Positions 2,298 to 23,340 of a DNA stretch of 35,755 nt are shown piece after piece. The notes beneath the pieces are model-generated. The model saw only the letters and a list, made by a program, of their open reading frames with translations. It was not told where the DNA came from and made no database searches. The DNA comes from a bacterium (GTDB lineage Bacteria > Eisenbacteria > RBG-16-71-46), in contig JAYWEM010000138.1 in the NCBI GenBank assembly GCA_043779265.1, positions 1-35,755 on the forward strand, given 5' to 3'. Each line of letters opens with the position of its first letter. Position 1 is the stretch's first letter. Made by a program: the position numbers and the translations under genes.

Positions 2298-2364
2298 GTC
2301 TCGTTCCTCCAGCACCAGCCGAGCGGCCGGGGATTCGGCAGAAGCCACGCGGGCCCCGGCACGG

Positions 2365-3912: not shown

Positions 3913-4189
3913 GGTATCGAGGGCGGCGCGTGACAAGGGACCTCCAGGACATGATTCGACGGAGGCCATCGTGGCCCCGCGCCCTATCATGATCGGCGCA
4001 TGGGTGGGCCGCACTGAAGCCCGGCCTCTCGCGCGAGGGGATGGGTTGAGGTGCAGCCCGGAAGCCGTTGTGGAAAGGCTATTTCGATCGCGCGAACTCT
4101 TTCGCAGCAGCCCCGGCGCCAGCGCCTCCGCTTGCTGCTATCGTGCCGAGTGTCGCGCGCGGGGCGCGACCTCCACCGGGAGCGAGCAC

Positions 4190-5656: not shown

Positions 5657-6877
5657 GTGGACGATCTCGCTCGTAGGCTCTCGACTGCTTCGAATCGGGC
5701 AGCACTCGCTCGGATGCTCGAGGAGCACGTGATCGAGGTGCTCGCGCCCAGCTCGGTGGTTGTCTACCTGATGCAGGCCGAGGGCCATTTCGAGGCGACG
5801 AGCGGCAATCTGCCCGCCGGGCTCGAACGCCTGCCGCGAGACCTGCCCACCGGCAGGGGATGGTCCGAGGAGTTGGACCAGGCGGGAGGCGCTCTCGCGC
5901 ACGCTCCGGTTCGCACCCTGCTCGCAGCGATCGAGCCGGATCAACTCGTGCCGATCCCCGATCGCTCCGACCGGCTCGTCGGTTTGCTTGTGCTCGGTCG
6001 CAACTCCAAGCTCGGTGCCGACCAGGAGGAGGGGCGCCGAGCGCTCGCCTCGATCGCCACTCACGCGGGTATCGCGCTCGAGATCATCCAACTCGCCGAA
6101 CAACTGGCCGAGCGCATGGACGGCGAGCGCCGCTCCGAGCGCGAACTCGGCATCGCGCGCGATGTGCAACGCCGGTTGTTCCCGCAGAGCGTCCCCGAAC
6201 TCCCTTCGCTGGAGATCGCAGCGAGATGCGTGCAGGCTCGATCGGTGGGAGGGGACTACTACGATTTCCTCGATCTCGGTCCCGATCAGACGGGGTTCGT
6301 GCTGGCCGATGTCTCGGGCAAGGGCATGGCGGCAGCGCTGCGGATGGCCAATCTGCAGGCGCATCTGCGCAGTCAGATCGCGAGCGCTCCGAGGGACCCT
6401 TTGCGCGTGCTACGCCAAGTGAACCGCATGCTGCTCGAGTCGACGGACCCCGGTCACTTCGCGACGCTCTTCCTCGGCGTCTACACGGAGTCCTCGAGGC
6501 GGCTGAGCTACATCAACTGCGGCCACAATCCGCCGCTCTGTGTGAGACGTGATGGATCGATCGAGTGGCTGCATGCGACCGCCACCGTGCTCGGTTCGTT
6601 CGAACAGTGGGAGTGCACTCTGGGGCGCACGCAACTGGCGGCCGGCGATGTGCTGGTCGCCTACAGTGACGGTGTGACGGAAGCGGGCGCGGGCGAGCAT
6701 CTGTTCGGTGAGGAACGTCTGGCCGAGACGGTCCGCGAGCACGCGGCCCTCACCTGCGAGGCGATCGTGGACGCGTTGCTCGCTCGCGTTGAAAAGCACG
6801 CGCAAGGGTTGGCACTCGATGACCTCACGCTGCTCGTGACTCGCGGCCGGGATGTTCCATTGGGCGATATCCATTAG
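5657..6877 (+). CDS. GAF-like domain + SpoIIE/PP2C phosphatase (RsbU-like)
   Basis: ELGIARDVQRRLFP, VGGDYYDF, ADVSGKG, FATLFLG, NCGHNPP, YSDGVTEA and DDLTLL motifs; N-terminal GAF-like region (VGLLVLG). Confidence 0.9.
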   Translation: MDDLARRLSTASNRAALARMLEEHVIEVLAPSSVVVYLMQAEGHFEATSGNLPAGLERLPRDLPTGRGWSEELDQAGGALAHAPVRTLLAAIEPDQLVPIPDRSDRLVGLLVLGRNSKLGADQEEGRRALASIATHAGIALEIIQLAEQLAERMDGERRSERELGIARDVQRRLFPQSVPELPSLEIAARCVQARSVGGDYYDFLDLGPDQTGFVLADVSGKGMAAALRMANLQAHLRSQIASAPRDPLRVLRQVNRMLLESTDPGHFATLFLGVYTESSRRLSYINCGHNPPLCVRRDGSIEWLHATATVLGSFEQWECTLGRTQLAAGDVLVAYSDGVTEAGAGEHLFGEERLAETVREHAALTCEAIVDALLARVEKHAQGLALDDLTLLVTRGRDVPLGDIH

Positions 6878-7078: not shown

Positions 7079-8428
7079 TCAGCTTCGCGCGATCGCTCGG
7101 CGATCGCCGGCCGGAAACAGGACGCAGAACGCGGTTCCCCGGCCTGGCTCGCTGGTCACTGAGATCTGACCGCTCATGCGCTCGATCAACTGGCGGCACA
7201 GCGCCAGCCCCATGCCGAGGCCGCCCTCCGTACGAGTGGAGGAGCCATCGATCTGCTCGAAGGCATTGAACACACTGGTCAGCTTCGCGGCGGGGACCCC
7301 GGGCCCATCATCGACGACCTGCACGCGGACCCAGAGGCGGTCCTCCTGCTGATGCATGTCGGCCTCGAGTCGGATGCGGCTGCCCTGTGGTGTGAACTTG
7401 ACTGCGTTGTCGATGAGCTCGTCGAGGATCTGGTGGAAGCGCGATCGATCGATCTTGGCGGGAACGAGATCGGGCGCCCATGAGGCCGTCAACTCCCGGA
7501 GCCCCGAGGCGACGCCGGGGCGGCGTCGGCTGAAGCAGCCCTCCAACTCCTCGCGAATCGAGAGGATCTCGATTTGAATCGGCGCCTGATTCCGGCTCAG
7601 CTCCGAGAAGGTCAGAAGATTCTCGACCAGGCTCCAGAGATTTCGCGCATTCTGCTGTGCGAGCGAGACGAAGTGATCGCGACTCCGGGCGTCCCCCGAC
7701 TGGTCGGTCACGCAATCGAGTGCACCGATCATGATCGTGAGCGGCGTTCGCAGCTCGTGATTGACGTTCGAGAGGAAGTCGGATTTCAGCTGGTCCATCT
7801 CGCCGAGCCGTTCATTCGACGCCTGCAATTGGCGGTTCGTCTCGAGCACGCGACTGTAGAGCCGACCGTTGAGGATCGACGGGCCGACGATGCCGAGCGA
7901 GGCCTCCAGGATGGCGAGGTCCTCCGACGCGTAGGGCGTCCCGTCGATCCGATTTCCGAGCGCGAGCCAGCCGAGGAGCTGGTCCCCGCCGCTGATGGGT
8001 GCGAAGAGCGCGATCCCGGCGTGTTCGAGCATGGGCAGGGCGGCCGGAGCAACGTGCTCACGAAGGGCCCAAGCCAGAATGGGCTCTCGCCTCGCAGCGA
8101 AGCGTCGTCCGATAGCGTCTGCGCACGTCGTGCCGACGGTCAGGGCGGATGATTTGGACAGGCCGCGATGGCGAACGAGAACGGCCTTGTTGGTCCCCTC
8201 TGTCATCAGCCAGAGCGCCGAGCGCGAGGTTCGGAACTGCCCCATCAAATTCAGCATGAGCAGATCCACGGTCTCGTAGAGGCCGAGCGAGACGTTCAAC
8301 TCGCTTGCCAGCTGCAGCATCGACTGGAACGCGTACTCACGCCGGTCCGCATGGAGCGAACCGGATGACGCGATCGGACGCAGCGGCTCGTCCGGCGTTC
8401 CCTCGGGCCGATGCAGGGCCTCACTCAT
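7079..8428 (-). CDS. Cytoplasmic GAF-domain sensor histidine kinase (GAF-HisKA-HATPase)
   Basis: H-box FLSNVNHELRTPL, N-box LIDNAVKF, G1 DDGPG, F-box FNAFEQID and G2 GGLGMGL; N-terminal GAF; no transmembrane segment seen. Confidence 0.93.
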   Translation of the reverse strand: MSEALHRPEGTPDEPLRPIASSGSLHADRREYAFQSMLQLASELNVSLGLYETVDLLMLNLMGQFRTSRSALWLMTEGTNKAVLVRHRGLSKSSALTVGTTCADAIGRRFAARREPILAWALREHVAPAALPMLEHAGIALFAPISGGDQLLGWLALGNRIDGTPYASEDLAILEASLGIVGPSILNGRLYSRVLETNRQLQASNERLGEMDQLKSDFLSNVNHELRTPLTIMIGALDCVTDQSGDARSRDHFVSLAQQNARNLWSLVENLLTFSELSRNQAPIQIEILSIREELEGCFSRRRPGVASGLRELTASWAPDLVPAKIDRSRFHQILDELIDNAVKFTPQGSRIRLEADMHQQEDRLWVRVQVVDDGPGVPAAKLTSVFNAFEQIDGSSTRTEGGLGMGLALCRQLIERMSGQISVTSEPGRGTAFCVLFPAGDRRAIARS

Positions 8429-8778
8429 GCAGCGCGAAGCCCCTGCACTGCGCTCTGCTCACTCGACTCGATGCGGAGGAACTGGTCGAGGTTGAGCAGG
8501 CGGAGGACGGCATCGACGGGGGGTGAGGGGTCGGCCAGGCAGAGCTGGAGGCCGGACTGACGGAACTCCTCGCTCAGGGCGAGCAGCGCGCCGATCCCGC
8601 TTGATGCGATGAACGTCACGCTGGCGAGATTCAGGATGAGGTCCCGGCGCGCGCTGCGCGCCGTGGCACAATCCTCGAGCATCTTGGCCGCATGGCGAGC
8701 GTCCATGTGTCCGCTCACGCGCAGTACGGTCGTGCGCGCGTCGAGGTCCGAGCGATCGATCGAGAATGTCCTGTCCAT
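8425..8778 (-). CDS. STAS-domain anti-sigma factor antagonist (RsbV/SpoIIAA-like)
   Basis: 117 aa; VLRVSGHMD, LILNLASVTFIASSGIGALL (phosphoacceptor Ser region) and VLRLLNLDQFL. Confidence 0.9.
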   Translation of the reverse strand: MDRTFSIDRSDLDARTTVLRVSGHMDARHAAKMLEDCATARSARRDLILNLASVTFIASSGIGALLALSEEFRQSGLQLCLADPSPPVDAVLRLLNLDQFLRIESSEQSAVQGLRAA

Positions 8779-10919
8779 CAGGCCGACTCCTTCAGGTTCT
8801 CCTGATCACGCCGAGGTCCGAACGTGAGCGAGGTGATGTTCCCGCGCGCGGTGCCCGGTCGATAACCGAATCCGCGCATGACGTTGTGGATGATGTCCAG
8901 CCCGATGCCCCGCCCCCGTCGGCGGACGTCGGGTTGTTCGAAATCCGAGGCACTCCATGCCTCGGGTTGGTACTGGGCACCCTCATCTCGAATGATGAAC
9001 GTGCCAGTTCGAAGCAGGCGGCTGGCCCGAGCCTCGGCCGTCTCCCCGGGAACGGGGGGAGTCGCCTCACCGGTGAGCCACCAGAGCTGGAAGTCGATCG
9101 GAGTCCGGCCCGCGAAGCCATGCTCGGCGATGTTCGCTCCCGCCTCGTAGAGGGCCGACGTCAGCCACTCCATCTCCTCTCGCGCGAGGTCACGCAGCGC
9201 GGGGATGCAGGCGAGCCATGGCCGGATCGAGTGCAGCGAGTCGAGTGACGCCTGGAGTGTCAGGCCGACTCCGCCCGCCTCGGCCGAGTGCAGCGCGTCC
9301 AGGGCCGAGCGGTCCGCGGGATCCGGGCTCGAGCGCTCGATGGGAGCGGGCAATTCGGCCGAGAGGATCAAGATCGACTCGTCGTCCTCGGGCGGCGCGC
9401 CACCCGTCCAGTCCTGGATCGCAGCGTGCAGTCGACTCATCACGACATCCGCCCCCCTCGGAGCGGCGTTTTGCAGCACGGCCGAGAGGCGCGAGAGCCC
9501 GAACTCCTCCTGCGTGGCTGCGGCGAACGCCTCCGTGAACCCATCCGTGTATTGGATCGCCATGTCGCCCGGAGCGAGGGTGACCTCCTGGTCCTGGAGG
9601 GAGCACCGGATGACTCCTCCTCGGATGGCCGCCAAGGGGATGCCCTTCGTGGCCAGGGTCTCGACTTCCGCACGACCGCTGCGGACGATGAGAAGGGGGT
9701 TGTGTCCTGCCGAAGCGTAGATGAACCGACCCGTTTCGGGATCGAGGATCCCGTAGAACAGCGTCACGAAAACGCCCGGGCTGAGTGATTCGCAGAGCCT
9801 GGCGTCCAGCTCGACGAGCAGTTCGGAGGGGGAGTCGTATCGGTCACGGAGCGCGCGAAGGAGCGAGGACAACATCGCCATGACCATGCAGCCTGCGAGG
9901 CCCTTGCCCGCGACATCCGCCATCGCGATGGCGATCCGACCGTCCGAACGGCGGAGAACGTCGTAGTAGTCCCCGCCGACCTCGGCCGCCGTGCGCTGAT
10001 TCCAACGGATGAGGAACGGTGCGGCTTCGACCGGCCGAGAGGGCATGATCGAGAGCTGGATCTCGTGCGCGAGTTCCAACTCGCGGCCCAATCGCTCACG
10101 CTCGACCATCTCGGCTCGGGCCCGGCGCAGGGCGGCGGTCATCTCGTTGACGGTTCCCGCGAGCAGCCCCAGCTCCGTGCGGTCATCGGAGGCGATGGGC
10201 GAATCGAGATCGCCCTGCCCGATGCGCTGCAATCCGGCTCGGATAGCTGCGATCGGACGAAGCAGCGCCGACATCAGGACGAACGCGGCCGCGATACCGA
10301 CTGCGAGAAACGCGAGCATGACGAGCAACTGCTGCCGCCTCGAGGCGGCCAGTGCGCTCTCGACATAGTCGCGCTGCAGGCTGACATACGCTCGACCGAT
10401 GATCCTCTCGCCCTCGCTCGAGCGGACCGGCACCTCGGCGAAGAGCTCATGACCACCGCCTCGCAGCACTTCGCCGTCTCCGACGTGGGCGCCCGGCGAT
10501 GGGATCACCGAGAGACTCACCTCGGGCACGTACGGTGTGTCGAGACGAGCCACATCGGGGTGCGCCTGGATGCGACCCTCGTGATCGACCACCGCGGCGA
10601 ACGCCAACTCAGGCTGTCGATCGAGCAATTGGCGCACGACCGGCTGCAGCGTCAGTTCGGGGAAATCGGTCAGCAGGGCCCCTGCGCTCGTGAGGGCGAG
10701 GTTGCGGGCCAACAGCAGTGTGCGGGACTGGAGCTCACGATCCAGCGCCTGCCTCGCGTTGCGGTCGGCGACCGCCCCGACGCTGAGTACCGCGAGTATG
10801 GTGAGGAGCACGGCCACGGACGTCACGATCCAGCGAATGCTCCAGACGCGCCGACCGGCACGGTCGGAGAGCTTCGCGAACATGCGCTCGGAGGCTGGCA
10901 ATGGGCGGGAAGTGGTCAC
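8778..10919 (-). CDS. Membrane sensor: TM-periplasmic domain-TM-HAMP-SpoIIE/PP2C phosphatase fused to an RsbW/SpoIIAB-type HATPase kinase
   Basis: Two hydrophobic segments; HAMP (RPIAAI..GDL..ELGLLAGTVNEM); PP2C motifs VGGDYYD, ADVAGKG, YTDGFTEA and EDDESI; C-terminal LYEAGANIAEHG, DEG and GRGIGLDII. Confidence 0.9.
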   Translation of the reverse strand: MTTSRPLPASERMFAKLSDRAGRRVWSIRWIVTSVAVLLTILAVLSVGAVADRNARQALDRELQSRTLLLARNLALTSAGALLTDFPELTLQPVVRQLLDRQPELAFAAVVDHEGRIQAHPDVARLDTPYVPEVSLSVIPSPGAHVGDGEVLRGGGHELFAEVPVRSSEGERIIGRAYVSLQRDYVESALAASRRQQLLVMLAFLAVGIAAAFVLMSALLRPIAAIRAGLQRIGQGDLDSPIASDDRTELGLLAGTVNEMTAALRRARAEMVERERLGRELELAHEIQLSIMPSRPVEAAPFLIRWNQRTAAEVGGDYYDVLRRSDGRIAIAMADVAGKGLAGCMVMAMLSSLLRALRDRYDSPSELLVELDARLCESLSPGVFVTLFYGILDPETGRFIYASAGHNPLLIVRSGRAEVETLATKGIPLAAIRGGVIRCSLQDQEVTLAPGDMAIQYTDGFTEAFAAATQEEFGLSRLSAVLQNAAPRGADVVMSRLHAAIQDWTGGAPPEDDESILILSAELPAPIERSSPDPADRSALDALHSAEAGGVGLTLQASLDSLHSIRPWLACIPALRDLAREEMEWLTSALYEAGANIAEHGFAGRTPIDFQLWWLTGEATPPVPGETAEARASRLLRTGTFIIRDEGAQYQPEAWSASDFEQPDVRRRGRGIGLDIIHNVMRGFGYRPGTARGNITSLTFGPRRDQENLKESA

Positions 10920-12946
10920 GGTGTCGCGCCCAGGATCTCGCGACTGCGAGCGATCTGCTGTTGGGCACGCGCGAGGTAGCCGCCAGCGCGAGCGTCGTTC
11001 GGGTCGATACGCAGGACGTTGCGCCAGTGCGTGACGGCCGCTTCCAGACGACCGGCGGCAAAGGCCTCCATGCCGCGAGTCAGGTACTCGCGCTTCAGGT
11101 ACTCGGTCACCTGGCGGTAGCCGGGCTTCGCGTTCCAGACGAGTTCCCAGTAGCGCATCGCCTCGTCAGGACGCTGGCGCCGAGCGGCATCGAGGCCGCG
11201 TCGGTAGAGCGCTTCGAGTTCGGCCTCGCTCATGCTCTGTTCCTGCCTCGGCACGGGTGCGGCCGCGGAAGCCGACTGCGAGTCACGTGACTTGACGCGT
11301 GCCGCATCCGTCGCGGAGGCGCGTGCGCGCGTCAGAGACGCGCGTACGGCGGCGAGCCTCGGAGCGTCGATATCGAGTAGCGCCGCCTGGTCGAGCAGGG
11401 TCGGTGCGTCACCGAGCGCGCCGGCGGCGATTGCCGCTGCCGCCTGTGAGATGAGCCGCTCGGCGCGGCGCCGCGAGGCCTCGACGGTTCGCTTCAGCAT
11501 CGAGCGCGCATCCGAGTCGAGTGAATCGACCGCGAGGACCGCGAGGAAGCCCGCGCGCGCGGCAGCCAGATCGTCACGGCCGAACGCGTCGAGGGCGACA
11601 GCGAAGCGCTGCCGCAGGTCGGCGGACCGCTTGGCCCGGCGATCGCTCTCGGCGCGGCAACGAATCGCGCCTGCGACGGCCGCCGGGTCCTTGGTGCCGC
11701 TTCGTGTTGCGAGGTCGAAGGTCATCGCGGCGGCCGGGAAATCGCCGCTCTTCTCGAGGGCCGTGGCCTTGCCGATCAGGCACTGGCTCTCCAGGCGAGC
11801 GAGGCGCGGATCATCGGGCGCGAGTGTGCCGATCGCGAGGATCGTCTCGAGGGCCTGATCGAAGCGTCCGCTGGCACGCTCGCGTTCGGCGCGATCGAGG
11901 AGGGTCGCGATCTGCTCGGCGTGTTGGCGCCGGAAGGCTTCCGCCAGTCGGCTCTGCAGCGCGTCATCCTCGGCCTTGCGCGCGGCGATGCGACTCGCCT
12001 CCACGCTCGAGCCGAAGTGGAGGGTCACGCCGACACGATGGTCGGTCGCGGACGTGCGGTCCATGTACGCGTAGTCCATCGAGAGATCGCGCCAACGCAT
12101 TCCGATGCCAGCCGTCAGTCGTCCGTCATCGAGTCCCACGCGTGCCGCCGCACCCGGAGTCGGTGCGATCTCGAGGCCGGTGTGGAGTCGCGCGTCCATC
12201 CCTCGCGCCTTCTCGACATCCGCCGTGGCGAGGACCCATCCCCAGCCCAGGGGAAGCTGATAGGCGAGCCCCCCTCGCAGGGTGGCCGGGTCCGGCACGC
12301 TCTCGCGGTCGAGACGCAGGGAGGGTTCGACCGCATTGCGGGCGGTCACGCCGACTTGGAGCCCATTGAGCCAGGAGTCCGGCTGCATGAGCAGTGCGCC
12401 CGGCTTCAGGCTCACGCCGATGTCCATGCCGATGCCGTTGGCCGAGTACCCCGCAAGGCTCTGCCGCTGCAGCTTGACCGAGGCCCCGACTCCGAGGGCT
12501 TCCCCGAAGGGTCGTCCATAGCCGAGCGTCAGCTCGGACTCGGCGTAGGTGAGGTCGCTCGAGAGCAGGACGTTCTCGCTGTCGCGCTGCTCGATGCCGG
12601 CTGTGCCGAACTGACGTGCGGCGACCCCGAGTGTGCCCCAGCGCCAACTCGGCATGACGAAGGCGCCGTACATCTCGCGCATGTCGAGGACGGGGTCGTG
12701 GAAGTCCGTGAACTGGAACTCGGATCGATTCACCCGCCCGAGGCCGCCCGGATTCCACACGAGTGAGCTGGCATCGTCGGCCGCGGCGACGTACCCGCCG
12801 CCCATGGACAGCGCGCGATTGCCGGCACCGAATGCGAACACCGATCGAGTGCCGCCATCGCCGTCGCCCGAGGCGTGGCCCGGGGACGCCGCCGCCAGCA
12901 GCAACAAGAGCCCCATCCCGATCGGAAGACGTCGCAGCGAGGTCAT
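10916..12946 (-). CDS. PorV/PorQ (FadL-like) outer-membrane beta-barrel with a C-terminal TPR-like helical extension
   Basis: Signal peptide, then the family N-terminal motif GAGNRALSMGGGYVAAADDASSLVWNPGGLG. Alternating beta strands end at HRVGVTLHF (~12014), followed by ~365 aa of Ala-rich helices with TPR-like units (e.g. GMEAFAAGRLEAAVTHWRNVLRIDPNDARAGGYL). Confidence 0.8.
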   Translation of the reverse strand: MTSLRRLPIGMGLLLLLAAASPGHASGDGDGGTRSVFAFGAGNRALSMGGGYVAAADDASSLVWNPGGLGRVNRSEFQFTDFHDPVLDMREMYGAFVMPSWRWGTLGVAARQFGTAGIEQRDSENVLLSSDLTYAESELTLGYGRPFGEALGVGASVKLQRQSLAGYSANGIGMDIGVSLKPGALLMQPDSWLNGLQVGVTARNAVEPSLRLDRESVPDPATLRGGLAYQLPLGWGWVLATADVEKARGMDARLHTGLEIAPTPGAAARVGLDDGRLTAGIGMRWRDLSMDYAYMDRTSATDHRVGVTLHFGSSVEASRIAARKAEDDALQSRLAEAFRRQHAEQIATLLDRAERERASGRFDQALETILAIGTLAPDDPRLARLESQCLIGKATALEKSGDFPAAAMTFDLATRSGTKDPAAVAGAIRCRAESDRRAKRSADLRQRFAVALDAFGRDDLAAARAGFLAVLAVDSLDSDARSMLKRTVEASRRRAERLISQAAAAIAAGALGDAPTLLDQAALLDIDAPRLAAVRASLTRARASATDAARVKSRDSQSASAAAPVPRQEQSMSEAELEALYRRGLDAARRQRPDEAMRYWELVWNAKPGYRQVTEYLKREYLTRGMEAFAAGRLEAAVTHWRNVLRIDPNDARAGGYLARAQQQIARSREILGATP

Positions 12947-15900
12947 CGCACCACCGCCATCTTCCGGACCACGCTCTCCGAGGTGCCGTCGTCATAGCGC
13001 ACGCGCAAGCGTGCGACATAGATGCCGTTGTGGACCGTGTCGCCTCGGCCATTGCGCCCGTTCCAGACGTCGCTCTGATGGAGACCCGGCGGCTTCGCAA
13101 CGTCATCGAGCAGCGTGATGACGTCCTCCCCTCGGGCCGACACGATCTGCAGCGTGACGCGAGCCGCGCCACGCAAGTAGTAGGCGACTCGCGTGTCCTC
13201 GCGACCTGCGGCGAACGGGTTCGGGAAGTTCGCGTAGCTGCTCTTGAGATCGACGGGGGAGAAGCCGCCCGCCGAGGTCCACAGTGGGAACGCCGAGCCG
13301 GCGCGTGGTTGGATCGCGACCGTGAGCAGGGCGCTGGCCGGTTGCACGACGCCGATGTCGGCGCGGTCGCAACCGAGCCGGACCCCGCTCGCACTCGCGC
13401 CGCCGCGCGGAATGAATCGCAGTTCGACGTTCCGCGCAGCGACGACATCGATCGCGAGCGTGCTCGAGGCCACCAGCGTGGCCGTGACCGAGTCCACGCT
13501 CAGCGTCGCGCTCTGTGCCCAGAGCGTCCCGTCGACGTGCGCTTCGATCCGAGAGGCAAGGGCACCGATGTTGACCTGGGAATAGGCGCGATCCGAGGCG
13601 CGCACGCGCAGGTGATCCAGCAGGATCGCCCCGGCGGCCGTGCTGTCGACGTTCGAGAGAACGATGAGCCCGGCGCTGACGGAGGTGCCGTCGGCGGCAA
13701 TCACCGTCGGCATGCGGCTGTCGAGGCCGACGGCGAGCAGTCGAGCGGGCGACTCGATCCGTCCGAGTCCTGAGAGGACCGGAAGTTCGGAGCCGGGGTA
13801 AGCCACCGCCAGAACCGGCGAGCCCGAGTTGGCATCACTCACATGGATCCCGGCGGCTGCAACGCTCAGCTCGATCAACCCGGTCGGGGCCGCGGCGTGG
13901 ATGTCGACATCGGCGTTCAGGGTGGCCGTTTCGCCGGGCTCGAGCATCATCGAGGGCAGCGGAACAGTGAAGGTTCCGGTGCCGGAGGGCATCGCCGTCA
14001 CCACCGAGATCGGTGTCCCATTCCACCGCAAGCGCATTCGGCTCAGCACGCTCGCCGAGGCGAGCGGGATGCGGGCTTCATTCCTGCAGGCGATCGACAG
14101 ACTATCGACACGGATCCGCGACGTACCCGGGGTTCCCGTGTGCCGGATCGTCATCTGGAATGCCTGAGCAGCCGGCTGGCCGACGAGCAGGCGTGGGGCG
14201 AGCAGGGGCGTCTGTGCGACCAGCAGGGTCTCGGCGTCGGCCTCCAGTTGAACCGGCGCCCCCGCCACGGAGTCCTGCGGGAAGAAGACGGGTAGCGTCG
14301 AGCGCGTGGTGGCATCACGTGCCTGCAGGCTCATCGGGCTCACCAGTCGAGCTCGATAGCGGCCGAGCGGCGCGAGCGATCGGACGTCGGCCTCGATCCG
14401 GACATCCATCGGCGTGTTGGCCGGGAGGTTGATGGGCGGGGAGAAGCTCAGAGTGAGCGCCGTGCTGTCAGCCGGGACGAGCGCGCGAGTCAGGTGGATC
14501 TGAGCCCCGGTGCGCACACGCAGTGTCGACAGAAGTGAGTGTGGCGGCACGCGCGAACCAGTCGATGCGTCGATCACCTCGAGCCCCATCGCAGAGAGGC
14601 GGACGTCGGAGGAGATCCCGCTCACTCCGGGATTCTCGATGCGAACCAAGAGGAGCGGTACGGCAGTCGCACCGCGGCTCGCGCGCACCGTGTCCGAGGG
14701 CAGGGCCGTCGCGTCGGCGCGTGTCGCCTCGAGGACGACGCGAGCGAGATCGGATCGCACGGGGTAGCCCGTACCCGGCACCTGCACCCGCACGGGAGCG
14801 AGGCTCGTGATGTCCTGGGCCTGGATCGAGAGGCTGTCGTCGAGGATGACGCGGAAACTTGGAATCGTCGTCGAGGGCAGTACGTCGAGTCGCAGAGCGA
14901 GCGTGGTCGGATCCGACTGGGTGATCTGCGCGAACGTGGCGAGCGGGAGGGAGATCTCCGAGCCCGAGGTCTCGAGAATCGACTTCACGAGGTAGACGGA
15001 TGTGCCCTCGCTCACCGTGACACGCTGCAGCAGGGTCGAGGGGATGATCGGGTCGCCGGCGTCATCCTCGAGCCGGATGCGCAGGCTCTGAACTCGGACA
15101 TCCGATGAGCCGACGGCGCCGGGATTGGTGAGCGTGAGGCTGAAGGGAATGACCTCGGATTGCCCTCGATTGACGTTCACCGGCATGGTCTGCGCGGAAA
15201 CCATCTCGAGATCGCTGCTCGCGAGATAGAGTCGATGGGAACCGGAGGAGGTGCGAAGTGCTGTGCGGATCAGGCCGCTCGAGTCCCCGAGGCCAGACGC
15301 ATCGACGTCGAGAAGGACGACGCCCGGTGCCATCGCGAGGCAGGACCACGTCACCGTGTCGACCGCGCCCGGGGCCAACGTGACGAGGCTCGGACTCGGA
15401 CCCGTGGACACCGACAGGGCACCGCTGACGGACATCTGCAGCGTCCCCGGCGCAATGTCGCGGATCGTCTCGGGCCCGACGTTCCTCAGAATCAGCCGCA
15501 GCGGGAGTGTCTGTCCGACGGTGCTCGCCTCGGTGATCGCCAGCGTCGCGAGCAGAGGCGACGTGCTGATGAGCAGCGCGCCCGGGCCGTTCACGTCGAG
15601 GTCGTTCGGTCCATCGTTGCCGGACGTGAAGACGATGCCGTCACGCGGGATCTGCAGGTCGACTCCGACGGAGTCCGACGCCGACGGCGAGATCTGGACG
15701 GAGACGAAGAGCCGCGCCCCGGCTCCGCTCACGGCTTGCGAGAGCAGCGGGCTCTGCCAGGAACCGCCGACCGGGGTCATCGAGCCGAGGAGGACCTCGT
15801 CGCCGGTGCCGGGAGTGAGAGCGCCGTCTCCTCCATCCAGCCAAAGCTGCATGAAGGCGACATCAGAAGACGAGGCGGTGCCGACGTTCCTCACGCGCAC

Positions 15901-18900
15901 GCCCTGGAGTTCATCCGATCGATAGCCATTCGCCGGGATCACGAAGTCGAGCGCGAGAAGGGGGCCATCGCCCGGGCTCACCGTTGCCGACGGTGTGGGG
16001 AAGATCGCGAGCTGAGAGGAGACGAACCCGTCGATCGCCACACGTGCGCCGGAGTCCAGAGGCCAGTTCCCGGCCACCGTCGAAGGCTCTCCGAGCGCGA
16101 CGTCCTCCGGCCCCACGAGTTGCGCGGCGACGATGTCGCCGTCGGCAGCCGCGGTGCGCGACAACTCGACCGTGACGAACACCTGCTGACTGGAGAGTGC
16201 CGGGAGATTGATGCGAAGGCCGCTGAAGACGACGCGGCCATTCGTGTAGAAGCCGCTATCGATGACCGGGTCCACGTCCGTGGCATCGAGAACACCGTCG
16301 TCGTCTCCATCCTCGCGTAGAACGAGCTGGCGGATCTCCCTGTCCAGTTGCGTTGTGGACCCCGGCCCCGTGGTGGAATTCGCCACCGTGAGCATCTCCA
16401 GCGTGCGAGCCGACGCGTACGTGTTGAGCGCACGGAGCTGCAGCACGACGAGATCGCGGTCTCCGGGGGCGGCGCTCGTGGGTGGCAGCGGGATGGCCTC
16501 GAATGTGATGCGGTCGCTGTCGGTCACGATCTGCGCGAACGGATTGGTGACCGATCGGTCGCACGGACCATCATTCGCGCTCGCCATGCTCATGCCGGGA
16601 ACGGCGCCGAACGGGAAGCTGAACTGCAGCGTCGTGCCCTGGGTGGCGAGTGGCGCGAGGTCCGCGCTCACGAACACGCGCTTCCCAGTCGTCGGGATGC
16701 TCTCCGAGAGACCACTCACGACCCAACGGTCGCCCGTGAACGCGAGGGTTCCAAGCAGGCGGTCCGACGTGGAGTTGAAGCTCGCATCTCCGTTGTCGAC
16801 CCAGGCGCGGACGCGCGAGATTTCGACGCCGTTGCGCGCGGAGCCGATGTTCATCACGGAAAGGCCCTGAAGAATATCGGCTTCATAGCCGTTGGCGGGA
16901 AAGACCGCTTGGAGCACGAGCTGATCGACCGCCGAGGGATTGACCCCCCGAGCGAGCACAGGCTCGAGGCCGATCTGCGCTGCGGCCATGCCATCGATGG
17001 GCGTGCCACCGATCGGATCGACGGGCCATGCATTTCCGAAGGTCGTCGCAGGTTCGATCAGAAGCGAAGAAGAAGCCTCGATCCGCAGATCGAGCACATC
17101 TCCATCGCGCGCGGCGAGTGGCGCATACGCGACCACGTGCAGGGATGCCCACTCGAAGGGTGTCAGCGGAATCGACAGGGAATCGAACGTGGCAATGCCA
17201 GCGACCGCAACCGCCCTCGCCAGACGGACATCCCCCGGGCCGAACAGCCCGTCACCGTCATCGACGTACAGGCTCATGGCCCCGAGTGCTTGATCGAGTT
17301 GCGCCTGTGTGCCGGGACCGGTGGTGCGATTCGTGAGCCGGAGGCGACGGAGGGTTCGCGGGTCGGGGTTCCGGTTGAGCATGCGAATGCGACTCACCGC
17401 AGCGCTGTCGCCCGGGAGAATCGCGCCGCCGGTCTGCGTGGCGGTGACCACGAGGTCGGAAGATCCGATCGAGAGCGCGTGACGGTTGTCCGAGTCATCG
17501 TCACGAACGGCGATACCGAGGCTGAGCGTGGCGGCCCGAGCAGCCGCATCCACGAACACGACCCAGTTCGACGGAATCGAGAGCGAGGTGCGTACGGCGA
17601 TCTGGAGTGACGCCGAGCCGTCCGCCGAGAGCACCATCGGCAGCGCCGGCGCGCCGATCACGGTGAAGTAGGCGTCGGCATCGCCGCGAGCGATCCGCGA
17701 GAACACCAGCGTGAGGCTGTCCAGCCGGATGTCCTGATCGGATGGGTTCGCAAGCTGGACCTCGAACGTGGCGATGGACTGCCCGGGCACCAGCGAGGCC
17801 GGCCCGGTGACGCTCCTCACGATGATGCCGGGACGCGGATGGACATGGACGGCGACGCTGTCGGCTGCCGAACCGGATCGGCCGGTAACGGTCCCGATCC
17901 CTCGCGTTGTCGCGGTGAACTGGCCGCTCGCTGTGATCGTCCCGATCGACGGCGAGGTCGCCCAGGTGGCGGCAGGAGGAGCGGGATTCCCATACTCATC
18001 CCACGCCGACGAGTTGAACTGGACGGTGCTGTCCACCGGGCAGTCGAGTGACGCTGGCACGACGAGCATCGTGGCGACCGGACCCGGAGCGACGCGAACC
18101 ACCCAACTGTCGCCATCCGCGACGAGGTTGGCATCCCCCTCGTCGGCACTCTGAGGGGGGAGCGACGTGCCGGTGTCGTCGAACGTGACGCTGAACTTGG
18201 CACCGGTCGCGTCGGCTGCCGTCGGAGCGATCGACGTGAAACGGATCCGGATCAGCTGGCCGTTCTGCACGTTCGTCGCCAGCGCTGCGATGACCGCATC
18301 CGGTCGGCTCGAATCCGCGAAAGCCACCGACGCGCCGCCGACGCGCACGGAGCTGATGGTCGGGACCCCATAGCCGAGCGGCAGGGTGACGCGGAGCCAG
18401 TCGATCCCCGTGTCCGTTCCCACGACTTCGGGCATCACATAGGCGTCGAACACGGTGGAGGCACCGGCCGTGGCGATCGAGGGCTTCACCTCGGCATCCG
18501 CACTGCGGGCGGCAAGTCCGCCGCCGACGATGCTCGCTGTCAGCAGGACCGAATGTTCGGGCGCCGACGTGGAAGAAGCCGGGAGACTCGCAGTCAGTCG
18601 AAGCGGCCCGTGATAGTCCTGCGAGCCCGAGGTTCCCGGGTAGTCGCTCCACAGGTGGAGCGATCGGGTCACCACGGATTCCGACGTCGGCGCGGGTAGT
18701 AGAAGGAGGGTGGTCGAAACGGTGTCCAGTGATCCACCGCCGAGTCCGCTGGCGTCGAGGGCCCACGCCAAGGGCTGGGCGGCCCGCCTCACGAAGAGCG
18801 TGTCGCTGGGGACGATCGCACCGATCAGGTCCTCGGCTCGACCCGCGACTTGTGCCACGTCATTCGCCCAGATCCGAAGCTCGACGGCGCCGCTCGTGGG

Positions 18901-20958
18901 TTGGCTCAGCGGCAGCCTGGTGGTTCCCGCCGTGGCGGGGCTGAAGCGAGCGGAATAGTCCGAGAGCGCGAACGTGAGCACGGGCGCCATGTCGACACCC
19001 GAGAGGCCCGACGAGGACGTGTCCGGAGGCGTTGCGCTGAATACGCGCGCCGCGATGTTCCAGTTGCCAGTCGAGGATGCGCGAGCGATGCGGCCCACCA
19101 CGTAAGCCACGCGCATCAGCTGTGGAGAAGTGGCGTTCGTCGTCGTGTCGATCTGGCAGAGCGACGGGATGACCGTCCACGTGGAGGAGATCGGGTCGAC
19201 CGTCTTCCAGGGCGAAGGGTCGCCTCGTCTCCAGCGGATCGCGACGTTGAAGGCCGGCTCATTGGAAGCCGACGCGTAGCCCGAGTGGAACAGGCTGAAT
19301 CGGATGTCCTGGATGTCCTGGAACCCGTTCCCCTCGGAGACCACGATCTCGGCGAGCATCGTGTCGCCCGGGGTCATCGTGTTGACCACGACGCCGGCTC
19401 GATTCCGAAGAACGGGTGGACCGAACGACGGCGTGAGAGCGGGAAGGATGTTGACTGTCGAGCTGTCCCGACGGATGCCGTACCAAGCGTGAACGCGAGC
19501 TGCGCCTGGCAGGAGCGCGCAGAACGTCCCGTCGATCGCCATCGTGCCGGCGGTCGAAGGCGTCACTCGCACGCTGTCGGGAGTGACGGCATAGCGGTTC
19601 GAGGACGCGTCCTCGCCGAAGAACCGGAAGTTCATGCACGTGCCCTGGAGTATCGACGCGGTGTTCGGCGTCAGATCGAGCAGGACCGTTGGGGAGGATG
19701 TGAGTGTCAGGATCCAGTCGTCCCCATTACCGGGCGTGCCATCGGCATCACCCGCCCAGAGTGCCTGCGCCCACGCACCCGGAGTCGACGAGTCATCGAG
19801 CAGCACGGGCATGTCCACTCCACCCGGCGTGACCGAACCGACGACGGAAGCTCTGAGGTCGACTCGGACCCGGCCACTGATGCGCACACGTGGGAATCGG
19901 ATCGTCACCGAAGAGCCGCCATCGATCCACGTCACGCCGGTGGTCGGGACCGGCACCCCACCGATCCACATGCGATCGACCGCGGTGATCGCGAGGGCTC
20001 CACGATGGACGAGCGTGAGGACGTCGAATCCAGTCGCGAGACCGCTCGGCGTGGCCCCCAGCGCATCGACGTCGGCGAGCACACTGATGGGGCTGTTGGT
20101 CGCGCCGATCTGAGCGGCGCGAGGTTGGACCTCGGCACGTCCGTCTCGGATCGCCGGCGCCTCATCCGTGTAGTAGACGACCAGGCGAGGACGTTCCGAG
20201 GCGTTCCCCTGATCGCTCGAGCGGAACAAGGCGTTGCGCTGGGGACCCTGACGATCGGGGACGATGACCAGGCCATTGTTCGCCAGTGCGCCGGACTGCC
20301 AAGCTTGGACGATGGGGCCGACCTGCCACGCGAGCTCGCTGCCATTGAACCCGGCGCCCGCGATGACGCGATCGGACCACATCGGTGAACGTGATCCTCC
20401 CGCAGTCGCCCATGTGATTCCGTTCCACCGATGGTCCCAACTGACCTGGGGCTCCAACCAGGACTCGGTCAGTGCATGGACGCGGGTGTCGATCGTCGTC
20501 GGTCCAGAAGTACTGTATTGAGTGAGCCGAAGCCAGGCCTGCAGCACCGTCTTGCCGGCCAGTCCGGTCAGCGGGATGCGCACCACCGGATACTTGTTCC
20601 GGGTGTTGCTGTTCGTCTGCAGTTCGAGCTCGTTCTTGCCGCCGTTCTTCTCGCTCGTGTTGTCTTCATTGAGGTGCGAGTCACTCGTCGCCGTGTCGGG
20701 CTGCACGCTCATGGTGAACGTGGCTGCGAACACGCTCGAGCTGAGGACGCACGAGAGCAGGCACGCGCACGCGAGTCGACCGAGAAGCAAGAGCAGCCAA
20801 CGGGCCGGGGCCCGGCGAGGAGGGGGGTTGGGGTTCACAACCCATAATCTCGGCAGATATCCCGTCGGCCTGAACGGCGTTGCGTTCTGCACGGATGCTG
20901 GCCCGGGAGGCGATAACTGGCGCGGGTTTTCGTGCATCCGCATGTTCCTCGAACGCAC
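12943..20958 (-). CDS. Giant repetitive secreted/surface protein (~2,630-2,670 aa): N-terminal DNRLRE/CBM96-like domain, many Ig-like repeats, C-terminal FlgD-Ig/T9SS-type sorting domain
   Basis: 8-kb open frame; hydrophobic signal ending SSVFA; DNRLRE-like motifs (WLEPQVSW, NNGLVI, FRSSD..RPRLVVYY); internal repeats; CTD NFPNPF...WNGRNGRG..VHNGIY...KMAVVR. The start is uncertain (20958, 20943, 20937, or GTG 20838 nearest the signal peptide). Confidence 0.88.
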   Translation of the reverse strand: MRSRNMRMHENPRQLSPPGPASVQNATPFRPTGYLPRLWVVNPNPPPRRAPARWLLLLLGRLACACLLSCVLSSSVFAATFTMSVQPDTATSDSHLNEDNTSEKNGGKNELELQTNSNTRNKYPVVRIPLTGLAGKTVLQAWLRLTQYSTSGPTTIDTRVHALTESWLEPQVSWDHRWNGITWATAGGSRSPMWSDRVIAGAGFNGSELAWQVGPIVQAWQSGALANNGLVIVPDRQGPQRNALFRSSDQGNASERPRLVVYYTDEAPAIRDGRAEVQPRAAQIGATNSPISVLADVDALGATPSGLATGFDVLTLVHRGALAITAVDRMWIGGVPVPTTGVTWIDGGSSVTIRFPRVRISGRVRVDLRASVVGSVTPGGVDMPVLLDDSSTPGAWAQALWAGDADGTPGNGDDWILTLTSSPTVLLDLTPNTASILQGTCMNFRFFGEDASSNRYAVTPDSVRVTPSTAGTMAIDGTFCALLPGAARVHAWYGIRRDSSTVNILPALTPSFGPPVLRNRAGVVVNTMTPGDTMLAEIVVSEGNGFQDIQDIRFSLFHSGYASASNEPAFNVAIRWRRGDPSPWKTVDPISSTWTVIPSLCQIDTTTNATSPQLMRVAYVVGRIARASSTGNWNIAARVFSATPPDTSSSGLSGVDMAPVLTFALSDYSARFSPATAGTTRLPLSQPTSGAVELRIWANDVAQVAGRAEDLIGAIVPSDTLFVRRAAQPLAWALDASGLGGGSLDTVSTTLLLLPAPTSESVVTRSLHLWSDYPGTSGSQDYHGPLRLTASLPASSTSAPEHSVLLTASIVGGGLAARSADAEVKPSIATAGASTVFDAYVMPEVVGTDTGIDWLRVTLPLGYGVPTISSVRVGGASVAFADSSRPDAVIAALATNVQNGQLIRIRFTSIAPTAADATGAKFSVTFDDTGTSLPPQSADEGDANLVADGDSWVVRVAPGPVATMLVVPASLDCPVDSTVQFNSSAWDEYGNPAPPAATWATSPSIGTITASGQFTATTRGIGTVTGRSGSAADSVAVHVHPRPGIIVRSVTGPASLVPGQSIATFEVQLANPSDQDIRLDSLTLVFSRIARGDADAYFTVIGAPALPMVLSADGSASLQIAVRTSLSIPSNWVVFVDAAARAATLSLGIAVRDDDSDNRHALSIGSSDLVVTATQTGGAILPGDSAAVSRIRMLNRNPDPRTLRRLRLTNRTTGPGTQAQLDQALGAMSLYVDDGDGLFGPGDVRLARAVAVAGIATFDSLSIPLTPFEWASLHVVAYAPLAARDGDVLDLRIEASSSLLIEPATTFGNAWPVDPIGGTPIDGMAAAQIGLEPVLARGVNPSAVDQLVLQAVFPANGYEADILQGLSVMNIGSARNGVEISRVRAWVDNGDASFNSTSDRLLGTLAFTGDRWVVSGLSESIPTTGKRVFVSADLAPLATQGTTLQFSFPFGAVPGMSMASANDGPCDRSVTNPFAQIVTDSDRITFEAIPLPPTSAAPGDRDLVVLQLRALNTYASARTLEMLTVANSTTGPGSTTQLDREIRQLVLREDGDDDGVLDATDVDPVIDSGFYTNGRVVFSGLRINLPALSSQQVFVTVELSRTAAADGDIVAAQLVGPEDVALGEPSTVAGNWPLDSGARVAIDGFVSSQLAIFPTPSATVSPGDGPLLALDFVIPANGYRSDELQGVRVRNVGTASSSDVAFMQLWLDGGDGALTPGTGDEVLLGSMTPVGGSWQSPLLSQAVSGAGARLFVSVQISPSASDSVGVDLQIPRDGIVFTSGNDGPNDLDVNGPGALLISTSPLLATLAITEASTVGQTLPLRLILRNVGPETIRDIAPGTLQMSVSGALSVSTGPSPSLVTLAPGAVDTVTWSCLAMAPGVVLLDVDASGLGDSSGLIRTALRTSSGSHRLYLASSDLEMVSAQTMPVNVNRGQSEVIPFSLTLTNPGAVGSSDVRVQSLRIRLEDDAGDPIIPSTLLQRVTVSEGTSVYLVKSILETSGSEISLPLATFAQITQSDPTTLALRLDVLPSTTIPSFRVILDDSLSIQAQDITSLAPVRVQVPGTGYPVRSDLARVVLEATRADATALPSDTVRASRGATAVPLLLVRIENPGVSGISSDVRLSAMGLEVIDASTGSRVPPHSLLSTLRVRTGAQIHLTRALVPADSTALTLSFSPPINLPANTPMDVRIEADVRSLAPLGRYRARLVSPMSLQARDATTRSTLPVFFPQDSVAGAPVQLEADAETLLVAQTPLLAPRLLVGQPAAQAFQMTIRHTGTPGTSRIRVDSLSIACRNEARIPLASASVLSRMRLRWNGTPISVVTAMPSGTGTFTVPLPSMMLEPGETATLNADVDIHAAAPTGLIELSVAAAGIHVSDANSGSPVLAVAYPGSELPVLSGLGRIESPARLLAVGLDSRMPTVIAADGTSVSAGLIVLSNVDSTAAGAILLDHLRVRASDRAYSQVNIGALASRIEAHVDGTLWAQSATLSVDSVTATLVASSTLAIDVVAARNVELRFIPRGGASASGVRLGCDRADIGVVQPASALLTVAIQPRAGSAFPLWTSAGGFSPVDLKSSYANFPNPFAAGREDTRVAYYLRGAARVTLQIVSARGEDVITLLDDVAKPPGLHQSDVWNGRNGRGDTVHNGIYVARLRVRYDDGTSESVVRKMAVVR

Positions 20959-21072: not shown

Positions 21073-23340
21073 GTGCCTTCCCGCGATGCTGCATCCGCAG
21101 CGGGCGGCCGGAACCATCTCGAAAGGCTGCCCTCGACCTTGCCCCGACTCCTCGCGTTGACCGTGGCCGCTTGCCTCTTCATGTCGTTCGCCGCTGCCTC
21201 TCGTGCCGCCGTGTTCTTGTCCGAGCTGTGCGACCCGCAGAACAACTACACGACCGATCGATTCATCGAGATCTACAACTCCGGTCCGGACGCCGTGGAC
21301 CTGACCAACTGGTCGGTGATCGCCGTGGCCAACAACGTGGATGTCACCACCTGGACGCTCTCCGGCACGATCGCGGCGGGTCAGGCCAGGGTGTGTGGCG
21401 GTCCGACGACGGTCACCGGCTTCACGGTCCACTTCCAGAGTGCGGTGTGGGCGACCACGGCCGGGTACATGAACTGGAACGGCAAGGTCGGCGATGGCGC
21501 GAAGCTCCGGAACGCGAGCAACACGGTGATCGACATCGTCGTGGCGACCGGGACTTTGTTCGAGAATGCGGACCTCGTGCGGAACATCAACATCACGAGC
21601 CCGAATGCGATCTACACGCCGTCGGAGTGGACCTCCACAGCCGTCACCCTCGCGACCGATGCGACGCCCGGTACGCACCACGGCTCGGTCGCCTCGGGCC
21701 CGGGACCTCGCATCCGCGACATCCTCACTGATCCCGTGAGCCCGATCGCCGGGTCGGGGACGCATGTGCAGGCGAGCGTCGTCGACACGAGCGGTGCGAT
21801 CGCCTCGGTCACGACCGTGTGGGGCGGCTCGGCCGCCTCGATGCCGAATGCCATCGCCATGGAGCTGCTGTCGGACTCCACGTATCGGACGCTGACGCAG
21901 ATCCCGGCGCAGGTCGCCGGCGCGACGATCCATTGTCAGGTGCAAACGGTCGGCGCTTCGGCCAGCAGTCAGTCCTCGACCTTGAGCTACACGATGCCGG
22001 GTGGTGGCGGAGGTGGCGCGCCCACGGTGGTCGCGGTGGGCGAGATGAGCGATTCGACGCTGCTCGTCCACTTCAGCGAACCGGTCGAGGAGGTCAGCGC
22101 CGAGACTCCGACGAATTACACGGTCGGAGCACTCGTGGCCGTCGATGCTGTCCGCGACCCGCAGCTCACCTCGCAGGTGCTGATCACGGTGCGCAACATC
22201 CCGTTCGGCGTACGAACGCTGTCGGTGAGCGGGGTCGCCGACCTGTCCGCGAACGTGGCCGTCGTCGCGACGCGCAACTTCACGTATATCGACGTGAGCA
22301 TCCCGGCCGGTTACTACAATGGCATCATCGGCCTGCGTGGTTCCGCGCTTCGCGTCGCGCTCAACAACCGGATCAGGAACCACACCGTGGTCAGCTATTC
22401 GGGTGCCCTGACGGCCTATGGCACCACTGACGTGAAGCCCAACGGCAAGATCTGGGACGTCTACTCCGACGTGCCCGGCGGCACGCCGCCATACGAGTAC
22501 AACGTCGGCCAGACGGGGCAGGGGGGCTCGGAAGGGCTCGGCTACAACCGGGAGCATTCCTTCCCTCAGTCGTGGTTCAACGGCTCCTCGCCGATGTACT
22601 CCGACCTCTTCATGCTCTACCCGACGGACTCCTACGTGAACGGGGCGCGGGGCAACTACCCGTTCGGCAAGGTCGGCAACGTGGACTACACGTCGCAGAA
22701 TGGCAGCCGTCGCGGATCGAGCAGCAGCCCCGGCTATTCGGGAACCGTGTTCGAGCCGATCGACGCCTTCAAGGGCGACCTGGTGCGTTCGATGTTCTAC
22801 GTCTCGGCGCGCTACCTCGGTCAGGATTCGAGCTGGCCCGGTAGCCCCGCGTGTGACGGGGCGCAGTGGTACACGTGGGCGGCAGAGCAGTACCTCGCGT
22901 GGAGCCAGGCCGACCCCGTCAGCTGGAAGGAGCGGTTGCGCAACGGAGCCATCTACACGTACCAGGGCAACCGCAATCCGTTCATCGACCATCCCGAGTT
23001 CGCGCTCGCGATCTACGACTCCAACGCGGTCCTCGATGTGGCGGATGCTCGCCCGAGCGAGACGATGCGCCTCCACCCGAGTGCGCCCAATCCCTTCCGC
23101 ACGACCACGATGATCGGATTCGAGCTGGCGCGGCGATCCCCGGTCTCGCTGCGGATCTTCGATGTGACCGGCCGGCAGGTCCGCACGCTCGCCCTGGGCG
23201 GTTCATGGGAGGCCGGCAGCCACTCGCTCGAGTGGAACGGGCGCGACGACTCCGGGGTGCTGCTCCGGGCCGGGCTCTACCTGTGCAAGCTCGATGCGCA
23301 CGCGGCGAGCGAGACCCGTCGGATCGTGCTCACGCGCTGA
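21073..23340 (+). CDS. Secreted endonuclease I-family nuclease with lamin-tail-like and Ig-like domains and a FlgD-Ig/T9SS-type CTD
   Basis: Signal peptide ending ASRA; lamin-tail-like FLSEL..FIEIYNSG..VDLTNW; nuclease motifs YNREHSFPQSWF, VNGARGNYPFG, FEP..KGD..R..FY and QGNRNPFIDHP; CTD APNPF..FDVTGR.VRTL..WNGRD..GLY. Start approximate. Confidence 0.9.
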   Translation: MPSRDAASAAGGRNHLERLPSTLPRLLALTVAACLFMSFAAASRAAVFLSELCDPQNNYTTDRFIEIYNSGPDAVDLTNWSVIAVANNVDVTTWTLSGTIAAGQARVCGGPTTVTGFTVHFQSAVWATTAGYMNWNGKVGDGAKLRNASNTVIDIVVATGTLFENADLVRNINITSPNAIYTPSEWTSTAVTLATDATPGTHHGSVASGPGPRIRDILTDPVSPIAGSGTHVQASVVDTSGAIASVTTVWGGSAASMPNAIAMELLSDSTYRTLTQIPAQVAGATIHCQVQTVGASASSQSSTLSYTMPGGGGGGAPTVVAVGEMSDSTLLVHFSEPVEEVSAETPTNYTVGALVAVDAVRDPQLTSQVLITVRNIPFGVRTLSVSGVADLSANVAVVATRNFTYIDVSIPAGYYNGIIGLRGSALRVALNNRIRNHTVVSYSGALTAYGTTDVKPNGKIWDVYSDVPGGTPPYEYNVGQTGQGGSEGLGYNREHSFPQSWFNGSSPMYSDLFMLYPTDSYVNGARGNYPFGKVGNVDYTSQNGSRRGSSSSPGYSGTVFEPIDAFKGDLVRSMFYVSARYLGQDSSWPGSPACDGAQWYTWAAEQYLAWSQADPVSWKERLRNGAIYTYQGNRNPFIDHPEFALAIYDSNAVLDVADARPSETMRLHPSAPNPFRTTTMIGFELARRSPVSLRIFDVTGRQVRTLALGGSWEAGSHSLEWNGRDDSGVLLRAGLYLCKLDAHAASETRRIVLTR

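Follow-up and report, generated by a model that had tools for sequence, protein, structure and literature searches.

Only a few mechanisms are known that let a surface-exposed protein of a Gram-negative cell pass information to the cytoplasm, and the question raised by this locus is whether its five genes together encode one. On the minus strand of the window (the whole stretch of 35,755 nucleotides that was analysed) there are five intact ORFs, each overlapping the next and each with a single terminal stop when checked at the coordinates of Table 1. The four junctions, leading from the giant surface protein gene through those of the barrel, the sensor and the STAS protein to that of the histidine kinase, are ATGA, GTGA, TGATG (8780-8776) and ATGA, and GC3 ranges only between 0.81 and 0.83 in the five ORFs. 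The coordinates and all four junction motifs of the original prediction were thus reproduced, and domain searches bore out the products that it had named: a giant protein with a C-terminal sorting domain (CTD), a PorV-like barrel with TPR, a sensor with PP2C and kinase domains, a STAS protein and a GAF histidine kinase. The true start of the giant protein is probably about 40 codons downstream of 20958, since a signal-peptide-like hydrophobic stretch is located at residues 53-83, and the sensor of the database record has 701 aa, with an ATG start 12 codons further in. A promoter and terminator scan gave no greater signal than was obtained in shuffles. The arrangement is not a product of chance, since the order and the tight spacing recur in relatives at 31-66% identity; it must be noted that the starts of the relatives were picked nearest to the preceding stop, which biases the counts of gene overlaps upward.

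Table 1. Coordinates of the operon genes and of their predicted domains and residues in the window.
Feature	Coordinates	Strand	Size or residues	Basis or remark
Giant secreted surface protein gene	12943-20958	-	2671 aa	Signal-peptide-like stretch, DNRLRE, tandem Ig-like domains, C-terminal sorting domain
DNRLRE domain of the giant protein	20176-20682	-	residues 93-261	Domain search
T9SS/FlgD-type CTD of the giant protein	12946-13251	-	about residues 2570-2671	VIA-align and profile
Barrel-TPR gene: PorV/FadL-fold outer-membrane barrel with long C-terminal helical/TPR arm	10916-12946	-	676 aa	Domain search, model, Foldseek
14-stranded barrel domain	12014-12724	-	residues 75-311	Model, Foldseek
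Terminal TPR domain, behind flexible linker	10931-11227	-	residues 574-672	Conservation; proposed sensor-docking head
Inner-membrane sensor gene: TM1, sCache, TM2, HAMP, PP2C phosphatase, RsbW-type Ser kinase	8778-10919	-	713 aa	Domain search
Periplasmic DcuS-like sCache	10332-10772	-	residues 50-196	Profile match; conserved patch 78-95
STAS gene	8425-8778	-	117 aa	Alignment
Putative STAS phospho-acceptor	8602-8604	-	Ser59	Alignment
Soluble GAF-HisKA-HATPase_c histidine kinase gene	7079-8428	-	449 aa	Domain search
Histidine of the kinase	7757-7759	-	His224	Domain search

With respect to the surroundings of the operon, a convergent GAF-PP2C gene (5657-6877) is located directly behind it, and was missing from this position in the 20 relative loci that were checked first. 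The product of the divergent gene at 21073-23340 is a secreted endonuclease I carrying lamin-tail and FlgD-type CTD domains, and two further CTD proteins were found at 26325-28439 and 30820-32004. The window also contains the glyoxylate shunt genes for isocitrate lyase and malate synthase (1017-4014) and an IS21-like element (32489-35636) whose ORFs encode a transposase and two IstB-type ATPases.

The giant protein carries the C-terminal beta-sandwich sorting domain of T9SS cargo. Its last 560 residues were modelled as tandem Ig-like domains followed by a terminal domain, and residues 2576-2669 gave a weak match to the PorU C-terminus in the domain search. The best VIA-align match of this CTD was the CTD of PorU (6za2; Z 11.5, rmsd 2.3, 93 aligned), and those of PorZ, mirolase and NucA were also among the matches. 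The CTD profile matched 85 proteins of the host genome, in all 85 of them at the C-terminus. Internal repeats were revealed by profiles, and BLAST of the protein against itself gave no self-repeats. In relatives the unbroken ORF ranges from about 1500 to 3500 aa; the C-terminal 1500 residues or so are common to them, while the N-terminal part is variable and consists of DUF11 repeats, CBM96, DUF7483 or nothing. As for the secretion machinery, SprA was found in the host genome (TIGR04189, 467 bits against a cut-off of 200) together with four Peptidase_C25 matches, whereas the GldM model (TIGR03517) gave no match in this genome, which is 92% complete, and was also silent in the control genomes. 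On these sequence matches the host, whose genome is assigned to Ca. Eisenbacteria by its named homologues, appears to possess a T9SS-like secretion outside Bacteroidota. In addition, FlgD_ig had 116 matches in the host genome. Two loci (L029:10070-11329 and L030:2557-3831) encode PorV-like barrels with their own terminal FlgD-type CTD, adjoining long TPR proteins, and FlgD_ig is present in 45% of an Atlas cluster of 660 members; a sorting domain after the last strand of a barrel is topologically puzzling.

The second gene was modelled with a mean pLDDT of 87.8 as a 14-stranded FadL-fold barrel with an N-terminal hatch, its strands being followed by a helix of 44 residues, TPR units, a disordered linker (548-570) and the terminal TPR. 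The first Foldseek hits were to 8gl6 and 6h3i (E 6e-10), in both cases to chain F of a T9SS translocon structure, which we take to be PorV; FadL-family channels came next, and a sequence search of the barrel against the PDB gave no matches. The PorV/PorQ family model NF033709 scored 85.6 bits, below its cut-off of 90, TPR was also matched, and the PorV and PorQ equivalog models remained far below their cut-offs. Judged by these scores, the protein is PorV-like and not a PorV orthologue. The arm, of 360 residues here and 255 to 400 among relatives, should be periplasmic according to the model, because the strand number is even and the hatch lies inside the barrel. Its best-kept part is the terminal TPR, with a conservation of 0.62, compared to 0.50 in the middle TPRs and 0.26 in the linker. 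The host genome contains about 11 PorV-like barrels, and the terminal-TPR profile gave a strong match there only to that of the operon, which was also the only one of the 11 examined with the sensor behind it. A CTD gene precedes 4 of the remaining 10; pairs of cargo and barrel are thus common in this host, and the arm and the sensor are the special part. The original prediction of a PorV-like barrel holds at the level of the fold, but with so many PorV-like barrels in one genome a dedicated carrier or anchor like SprF or PorP fits better than a general PorV shuttle.

The sensor matched sCache_3_2, HAMP, SpoIIE and HATPase_c_2, in this order, and its hydrophobic segments lie at 25-53 and 195-227; none was found in the histidine kinase. 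The PP2C residues Asp317 and Asp335 are present in 49/49 aligned rows and Asp459, Asp512 and Asp513 in 48/49, while Glu592 and Asn596 of the kinase N-box are kept in 44/49. An aspartate is usual before the phospho-acceptor serine of STAS proteins; here Ser59 is kept in all 42 rows and the preceding residue is Ala, Ser or Gly in all of them. By domain matches and residue conservation, the complete partner-switch module that had been claimed (PP2C metal aspartates, RsbW-type kinase and STAS phospho-acceptor serine) is present. No sigma factor was found in scans of the window ORFs and, in relatives, of co-directional neighbours, so that the sigma factor held by the kinase in canonical partner switches is not linked at the scanned loci; a histidine kinase follows instead, with His224 kept in 38/40 rows. 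The operon encodes no response regulator, and in three relatives (L038, L042 and L045) a PAS kinase and a receiver come next. STAS and GAF kinase are fused in L038 and L048 and also in 11 metagenome loci, probably as one clade, and because of these fusions the GAF histidine kinase is the likely target of STAS.

The sCache domain matches DcuS (E 2e-10), which would suit a rival scheme in which the genes are co-regulated and their products physically separate: the sensor would bind a small molecule as DcuS does and regulate expression of the adhesin, while the arm would only anchor the barrel to the wall or the translocon. We regard this scheme as unlikely. The DcuS/CitA pocket with two arginines and a histidine was not found in the operon sensor, where the profile alignment has Ile and Ala at the arginine positions, which we take to be the carboxylate ligand contacts of DcuS, and keeps the histidine. 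Conservation in residues 78-95 (0.60) equals that in HAMP (0.59); they form a family-specific patch that presumably faces the outer membrane, as judged from the fold, and conservation falls to 0.41 in the remaining, pocket-bearing part of the domain after the patch. As a precedent for anchoring, the TPR lipoprotein PorE connects PorP to peptidoglycan, according to the part of PMC9143113 consulted; searches of the arm against Pfam and NCBIfam detected no peptidoglycan-binding domain.

The linkage of the genes bears on the same choice. Strong matches to the sensor, the barrel, the kinase and the giant protein were found in nearly the same 45-50 of 206 Eisenbacteria genomes, which indicates a system of patchy distribution whose components occur together as a unit. 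Out of 49 strong sensor matches 46 loci were fetched (G152, G165 and G190 were left out), and 28 of them have the five genes in order on one contig, the last being a GAF kinase in 26 and a PAS kinase in 2; the remainder are mostly interrupted by contig ends. The giant gene lies on the opposite strand in L041 and L066, and STAS is fused behind the kinase in two of the 46. In 42 of 45 judgeable loci the sensor comes directly after the barrel; the exceptions are L033, L036 and L059, whose sensors have no barrel in front. In metagenomes, 80 loci were reduced to 78 on removal of L190 and L191 (weak matches that are not barrels), and the sensor directly follows the TPR barrel in 60 of the 64 with room for it; L112, L113, L120 and L188 have no sensor behind. 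The terminal-TPR profile was also matched in 142/201 genomes sampled from a second phylum (Krumholzibacteriota in the record labels, including G206) and in 9/12 genomes of a third. In the second phylum we examined 70 loci, namely the 30 best and 40 picked by hand across score tiers; three of the 70 repeat earlier loci. The next gene encodes the TM-sCache-HAMP module in 68 of them and a split kinase-first sensor in the other 2, and a CTD gene directly precedes the barrel in 35 of the 40 divergent loci. The linkage test proposed with the original prediction is therefore answered strongly in favour of linkage, and a core of cargo, barrel-TPR and sCache-HAMP is kept in uncultured bacteria of at least three phyla, although kin are not independent in these counts and operon inheritance alone can hold the genes together. 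Similar features are also found in Atlas clusters from Zixiibacteriota, Calditrichota and Elusimicrobiota. Paralogous barrel-sensor sets, each with its own sensor, were observed within single genomes, in G015 (L015 and L017) and, with three sets each, in G275 (L216, L234, L255) and G288 (L230, L235, L241); they are natural material for specificity tests. In G054, a 99% complete genome with no barrel, TPR or giant matches, the sensor and STAS are kept and the histidine kinase is frameshifted, a single case that fits decay after loss of the input.

This distribution can be set against a secretion checkpoint of the PorA-PorY type, in which the sCache domain would sense cargo that has not been exported, through its CTD or stalk, and the arm would be a chaperone or scaffold joining cargo and sensor. 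Such an interaction in the periplasm, between the cargo PorA through its CTD and the sensor kinase PorY, exists in P. gingivalis, as reported in the part of PMC12152298 consulted, and CTD and stalk are conserved in the giant-protein family. The cargo, however, differs strongly between subfamilies whose barrel-TPR and Cache remain adjacent, and the gene that abuts the sensor is that of the barrel and not that of the cargo. Such a checkpoint seems to us slightly less probable than the already unlikely co-regulation of separate products.

Four types of output were distinguished behind the sensor module. The first is that of the operon studied, PP2C and kinase with STAS and GAF kinase. The second has the kinase before TM1, then PP2C and HTH, with STAS separate or fused three times; the third has PP2C alone, followed by kinase or kinase-STAS and histidine kinase; and the fourth has HD-GYP without STAS or kinase, as in 17 of the best 30 second-phylum loci. 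In a FastTree tree of 128 sensor modules (one tree, with no topology test) the HD-GYP forms are spread over three groups that lie among the type I forms, with supports of 0.89-0.96. Because the outputs are swapped in this way (HD-GYP, PP2C alone, kinase-first fusions), barrel-TPR plus sCache-HAMP is considered the conserved unit; the partner switch, which had been predicted as part of the system, is present in the operon but is one interchangeable output and does not define it. The same Cache patch was found in P0263, a hybrid kinase and a singleton, and in P0290, a class III cyclase. In P0203, also a singleton, Cache-HAMP is joined directly to the histidine kinase core of the operon family, a fusion that is a lead only. 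Two apparent barrel-sensor fusions, both singletons, were dropped as likely frameshift or assembly artefacts, P0226 for its garbled stretches and retained TM1 and P0230 as a fragment. Sensors of 1400-1490 aa with kinase, TM, Cache, HAMP, PP2C, HTH and three STAS in one chain were observed in L242-L257 (e.g., L242:4332-8696), and in two loci (L094:11127-12761 and L096:2574-4202) the gene after the HD-GYP sensor encodes a C69 peptidase, which was not seen behind the sensor of L104 or L111.

The state of these enzymes also informs the direction of flow. In an inside-out control comparable to LapD/LapG or DvhD/DvhG, the membrane protein would read the cytoplasmic state and its periplasmic domain would pull the arm, releasing or retaining the surface protein. 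This is the explanation to which we give least weight, and we consider it improbable. According to the part of PMC13090378 consulted, DvhD is without its HD and double-His metal ligands, whereas both motifs are matched in 22/23 HD-GYP rows, in which two loci were counted twice. The PP2C and kinase residues are intact, as expected of regulated enzymes, and no LapG-like protease or T1SS gene was found among the neighbours scanned. Outside-in flow is favoured because the enzyme motifs are intact.

The remaining link is physical contact between arm and sensor. A complex model of two sCache domains with the terminal TPR scored 0.53, compared to 0.21 in the best control, with at least 81% of contacts agreeing between runs and a partner pLDDT of at least 86; this arrangement is outside the calibration of the tool and the model was graded weak. 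The mark set for the score was reached by 116/157 solved and 2/215 mismatched pairs, and at scores of 0.60 or below only by 18 solved pairs and by both passing mismatches. Mean-field DCA on 111 pairs (effective number 67) gave a top z of 6.38, compared to 5.95-6.55 in five shuffles. A signal from MI-APC (176 pairs) seemed to point to Cache 78-95 but counts neither for nor against contact, as the pattern was reproduced by shuffles that preserve clades and HAMP, which is cytoplasmic, scored equally often. L151, with a stop in the TPR, was left out of the pairs, and five loci that were short or duplicated were removed from the 176. In favour of the co-regulation of separate products are these covariation results and the occurrence of orphan sensors and orphan barrels; against it stand the single Cache subfamily located directly behind the TPR barrel across three phyla with several outputs and, weakly, the complex model. 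The predicted relay across the envelope is partly supported, through the barrel-sensor linkage; for physical contact the model is weak and covariation does not exceed its controls. We consider a TPR-sCache contact likely from the genomics, with modest help from the model.

Taken together, an outside-in relay, in which a signal would pass from a surface protein held by its barrel via the TPR arm to the sensor, is the explanation that we favour as reasonably probable. The giant protein would be exported by a T9SS-like translocon via its CTD and then held at the surface by its own barrel; the fold of the CTD and SprA were observed, and export and barrel binding are proposed by analogy with SprB-SprF and PG1035-PorP. 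The last strand of the barrel would end in the periplasm and continue as the arm, a topology taken from the model, and the terminal TPR would dock on the sCache patch, a step that is weakly supported. A change at the barrel may then move or release the arm, and HAMP would shift the balance between phosphatase and kinase. The likeliest inputs would be load or contact on the Ig fibre and gain or loss of cargo, each accounting for about half of the relay reading; allosteric transfer along 1500 residues of Ig repeats without force or release seems unlikely. Phosphorylation of STAS at Ser59 would set the activity of the GAF histidine kinase, in agreement with the STAS-kinase fusions observed, and this kinase would in turn phosphorylate a response regulator encoded elsewhere. 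In relatives, hydrolysis of c-di-GMP would take the place of the steps from HAMP to the histidine kinase, and these versions suggest control of attachment or of a surface lifestyle. A broader proposal, which we hold more tentatively and as possible rather than probable, is a modular form of T9SS-derived surface signalling, in which an Ig fibre with interchangeable tip stands on its own barrel and a periplasm-spanning TPR arm mechanically gates an sCache-HAMP unit into which a partner switch, a histidine kinase, a c-di-GMP phosphodiesterase or a nucleotide cyclase may be plugged; paralogous sets would be separate touch or attachment sensors.

The locus thus provides a defined and testable chain, with a small predicted interface between a TPR of 100 residues and an sCache of 150 residues that lends itself to tests in E. 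coli or in vitro even with uncultured hosts. If true, PorV-like barrels would gain a signalling role, a subfamily of sCache domains would have a protein as ligand, a histidine kinase would be identified as STAS target, and T9SS-type secretion would be seen to serve sensing in widespread uncultured phyla.

In FecA-FecR-FecI, RcsF-IgaA and NlpE-CpxA a regulator in the inner membrane is reached from the outer membrane, by a protein that extends across the periplasm. The overall logic of the operon is similar to that of TonB-dependent cell-surface signalling and of the latter two, but it lacks a TonB-dependent barrel, a FecR-like anti-sigma factor, an ECF sigma factor or a lipoprotein, and has a 14-stranded barrel and an sCache-HAMP sensor instead. 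RcsF-IgaA and NlpE-CpxA are also mentioned in the part of PMC12152298 consulted. The LapA/LapD/LapG and DvhA/DvhD/DvhG systems likewise combine a giant surface protein with a membrane protein bearing periplasmic and c-di-GMP-related domains; as far as the consulted sections of PMC13090378 describe them, they use T1SS, a periplasmic protease and a catalytically dead receptor, in contrast to the predicted T9SS-type export and the intact enzyme motifs of the operon, in which no c-di-GMP domain was found; T1SS and a LapG-like protease were absent from the window ORFs and the neighbours scanned. In SypE/SypA, HsbR/HsbA (PA3346/PA3347), BtrU/V/W and SiaABCD, as predicted for the operon, a PP2C and a Ser kinase, in one or two chains, toggle a STAS protein with a non-sigma target, with links to biofilm or secretion; their descriptions in the portions of PMC8256260 and 10.1101/674879 consulted include no outer-membrane partner, whereas the input of the operon is a periplasmic sCache tied to an outer-membrane barrel and its likely target a GAF histidine kinase. 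The defining features tested of Lap/Dvh, of TonB-dependent signalling and of the canonical sigma-linked switch were thus absent from the operon, and a literature search of largely open-access full texts gave no description of its arrangement. The predicted envelope-spanning module is real and conserved as a set of genes and apparently undescribed.

The closest parallels are found within the T9SS. PorA-PorY-PorX-SigP also ties a T9SS cargo to an inner-membrane sensor; there, going by the part of PMC12152298 consulted, the free periplasmic CTD is the ligand of the histidine kinase, while the operon places a dedicated barrel with an arm between the cargo and an sCache sensor with swappable outputs. 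With PorV of F. johnsoniae and P. gingivalis (6H3I, 8GL6; PMC10994853, consulted in part) the operon shares the barrel fold, the CTD fold of the neighbouring cargo and SprA in the genome; its barrel differs in having a C-terminal arm, in being one of several paralogues and in scoring below every PorV/PorQ cut-off. Finally, as in SprB-SprF and PG1035-PorP-PorE, a large CTD cargo gene lies beside the gene of its own dedicated 14-stranded FadL-fold barrel, and, by the predicted topology of the arm, a periplasmic TPR element is located on the inner face of the barrel. Compared with both, as they are presented in the sections of PMC9143113 consulted, the barrel of the operon is PorV/PorQ-like, its TPR arm is fused and without a detected peptidoglycan-binding domain, its host is outside Bacteroidota, and the very next gene encodes a membrane sensor.
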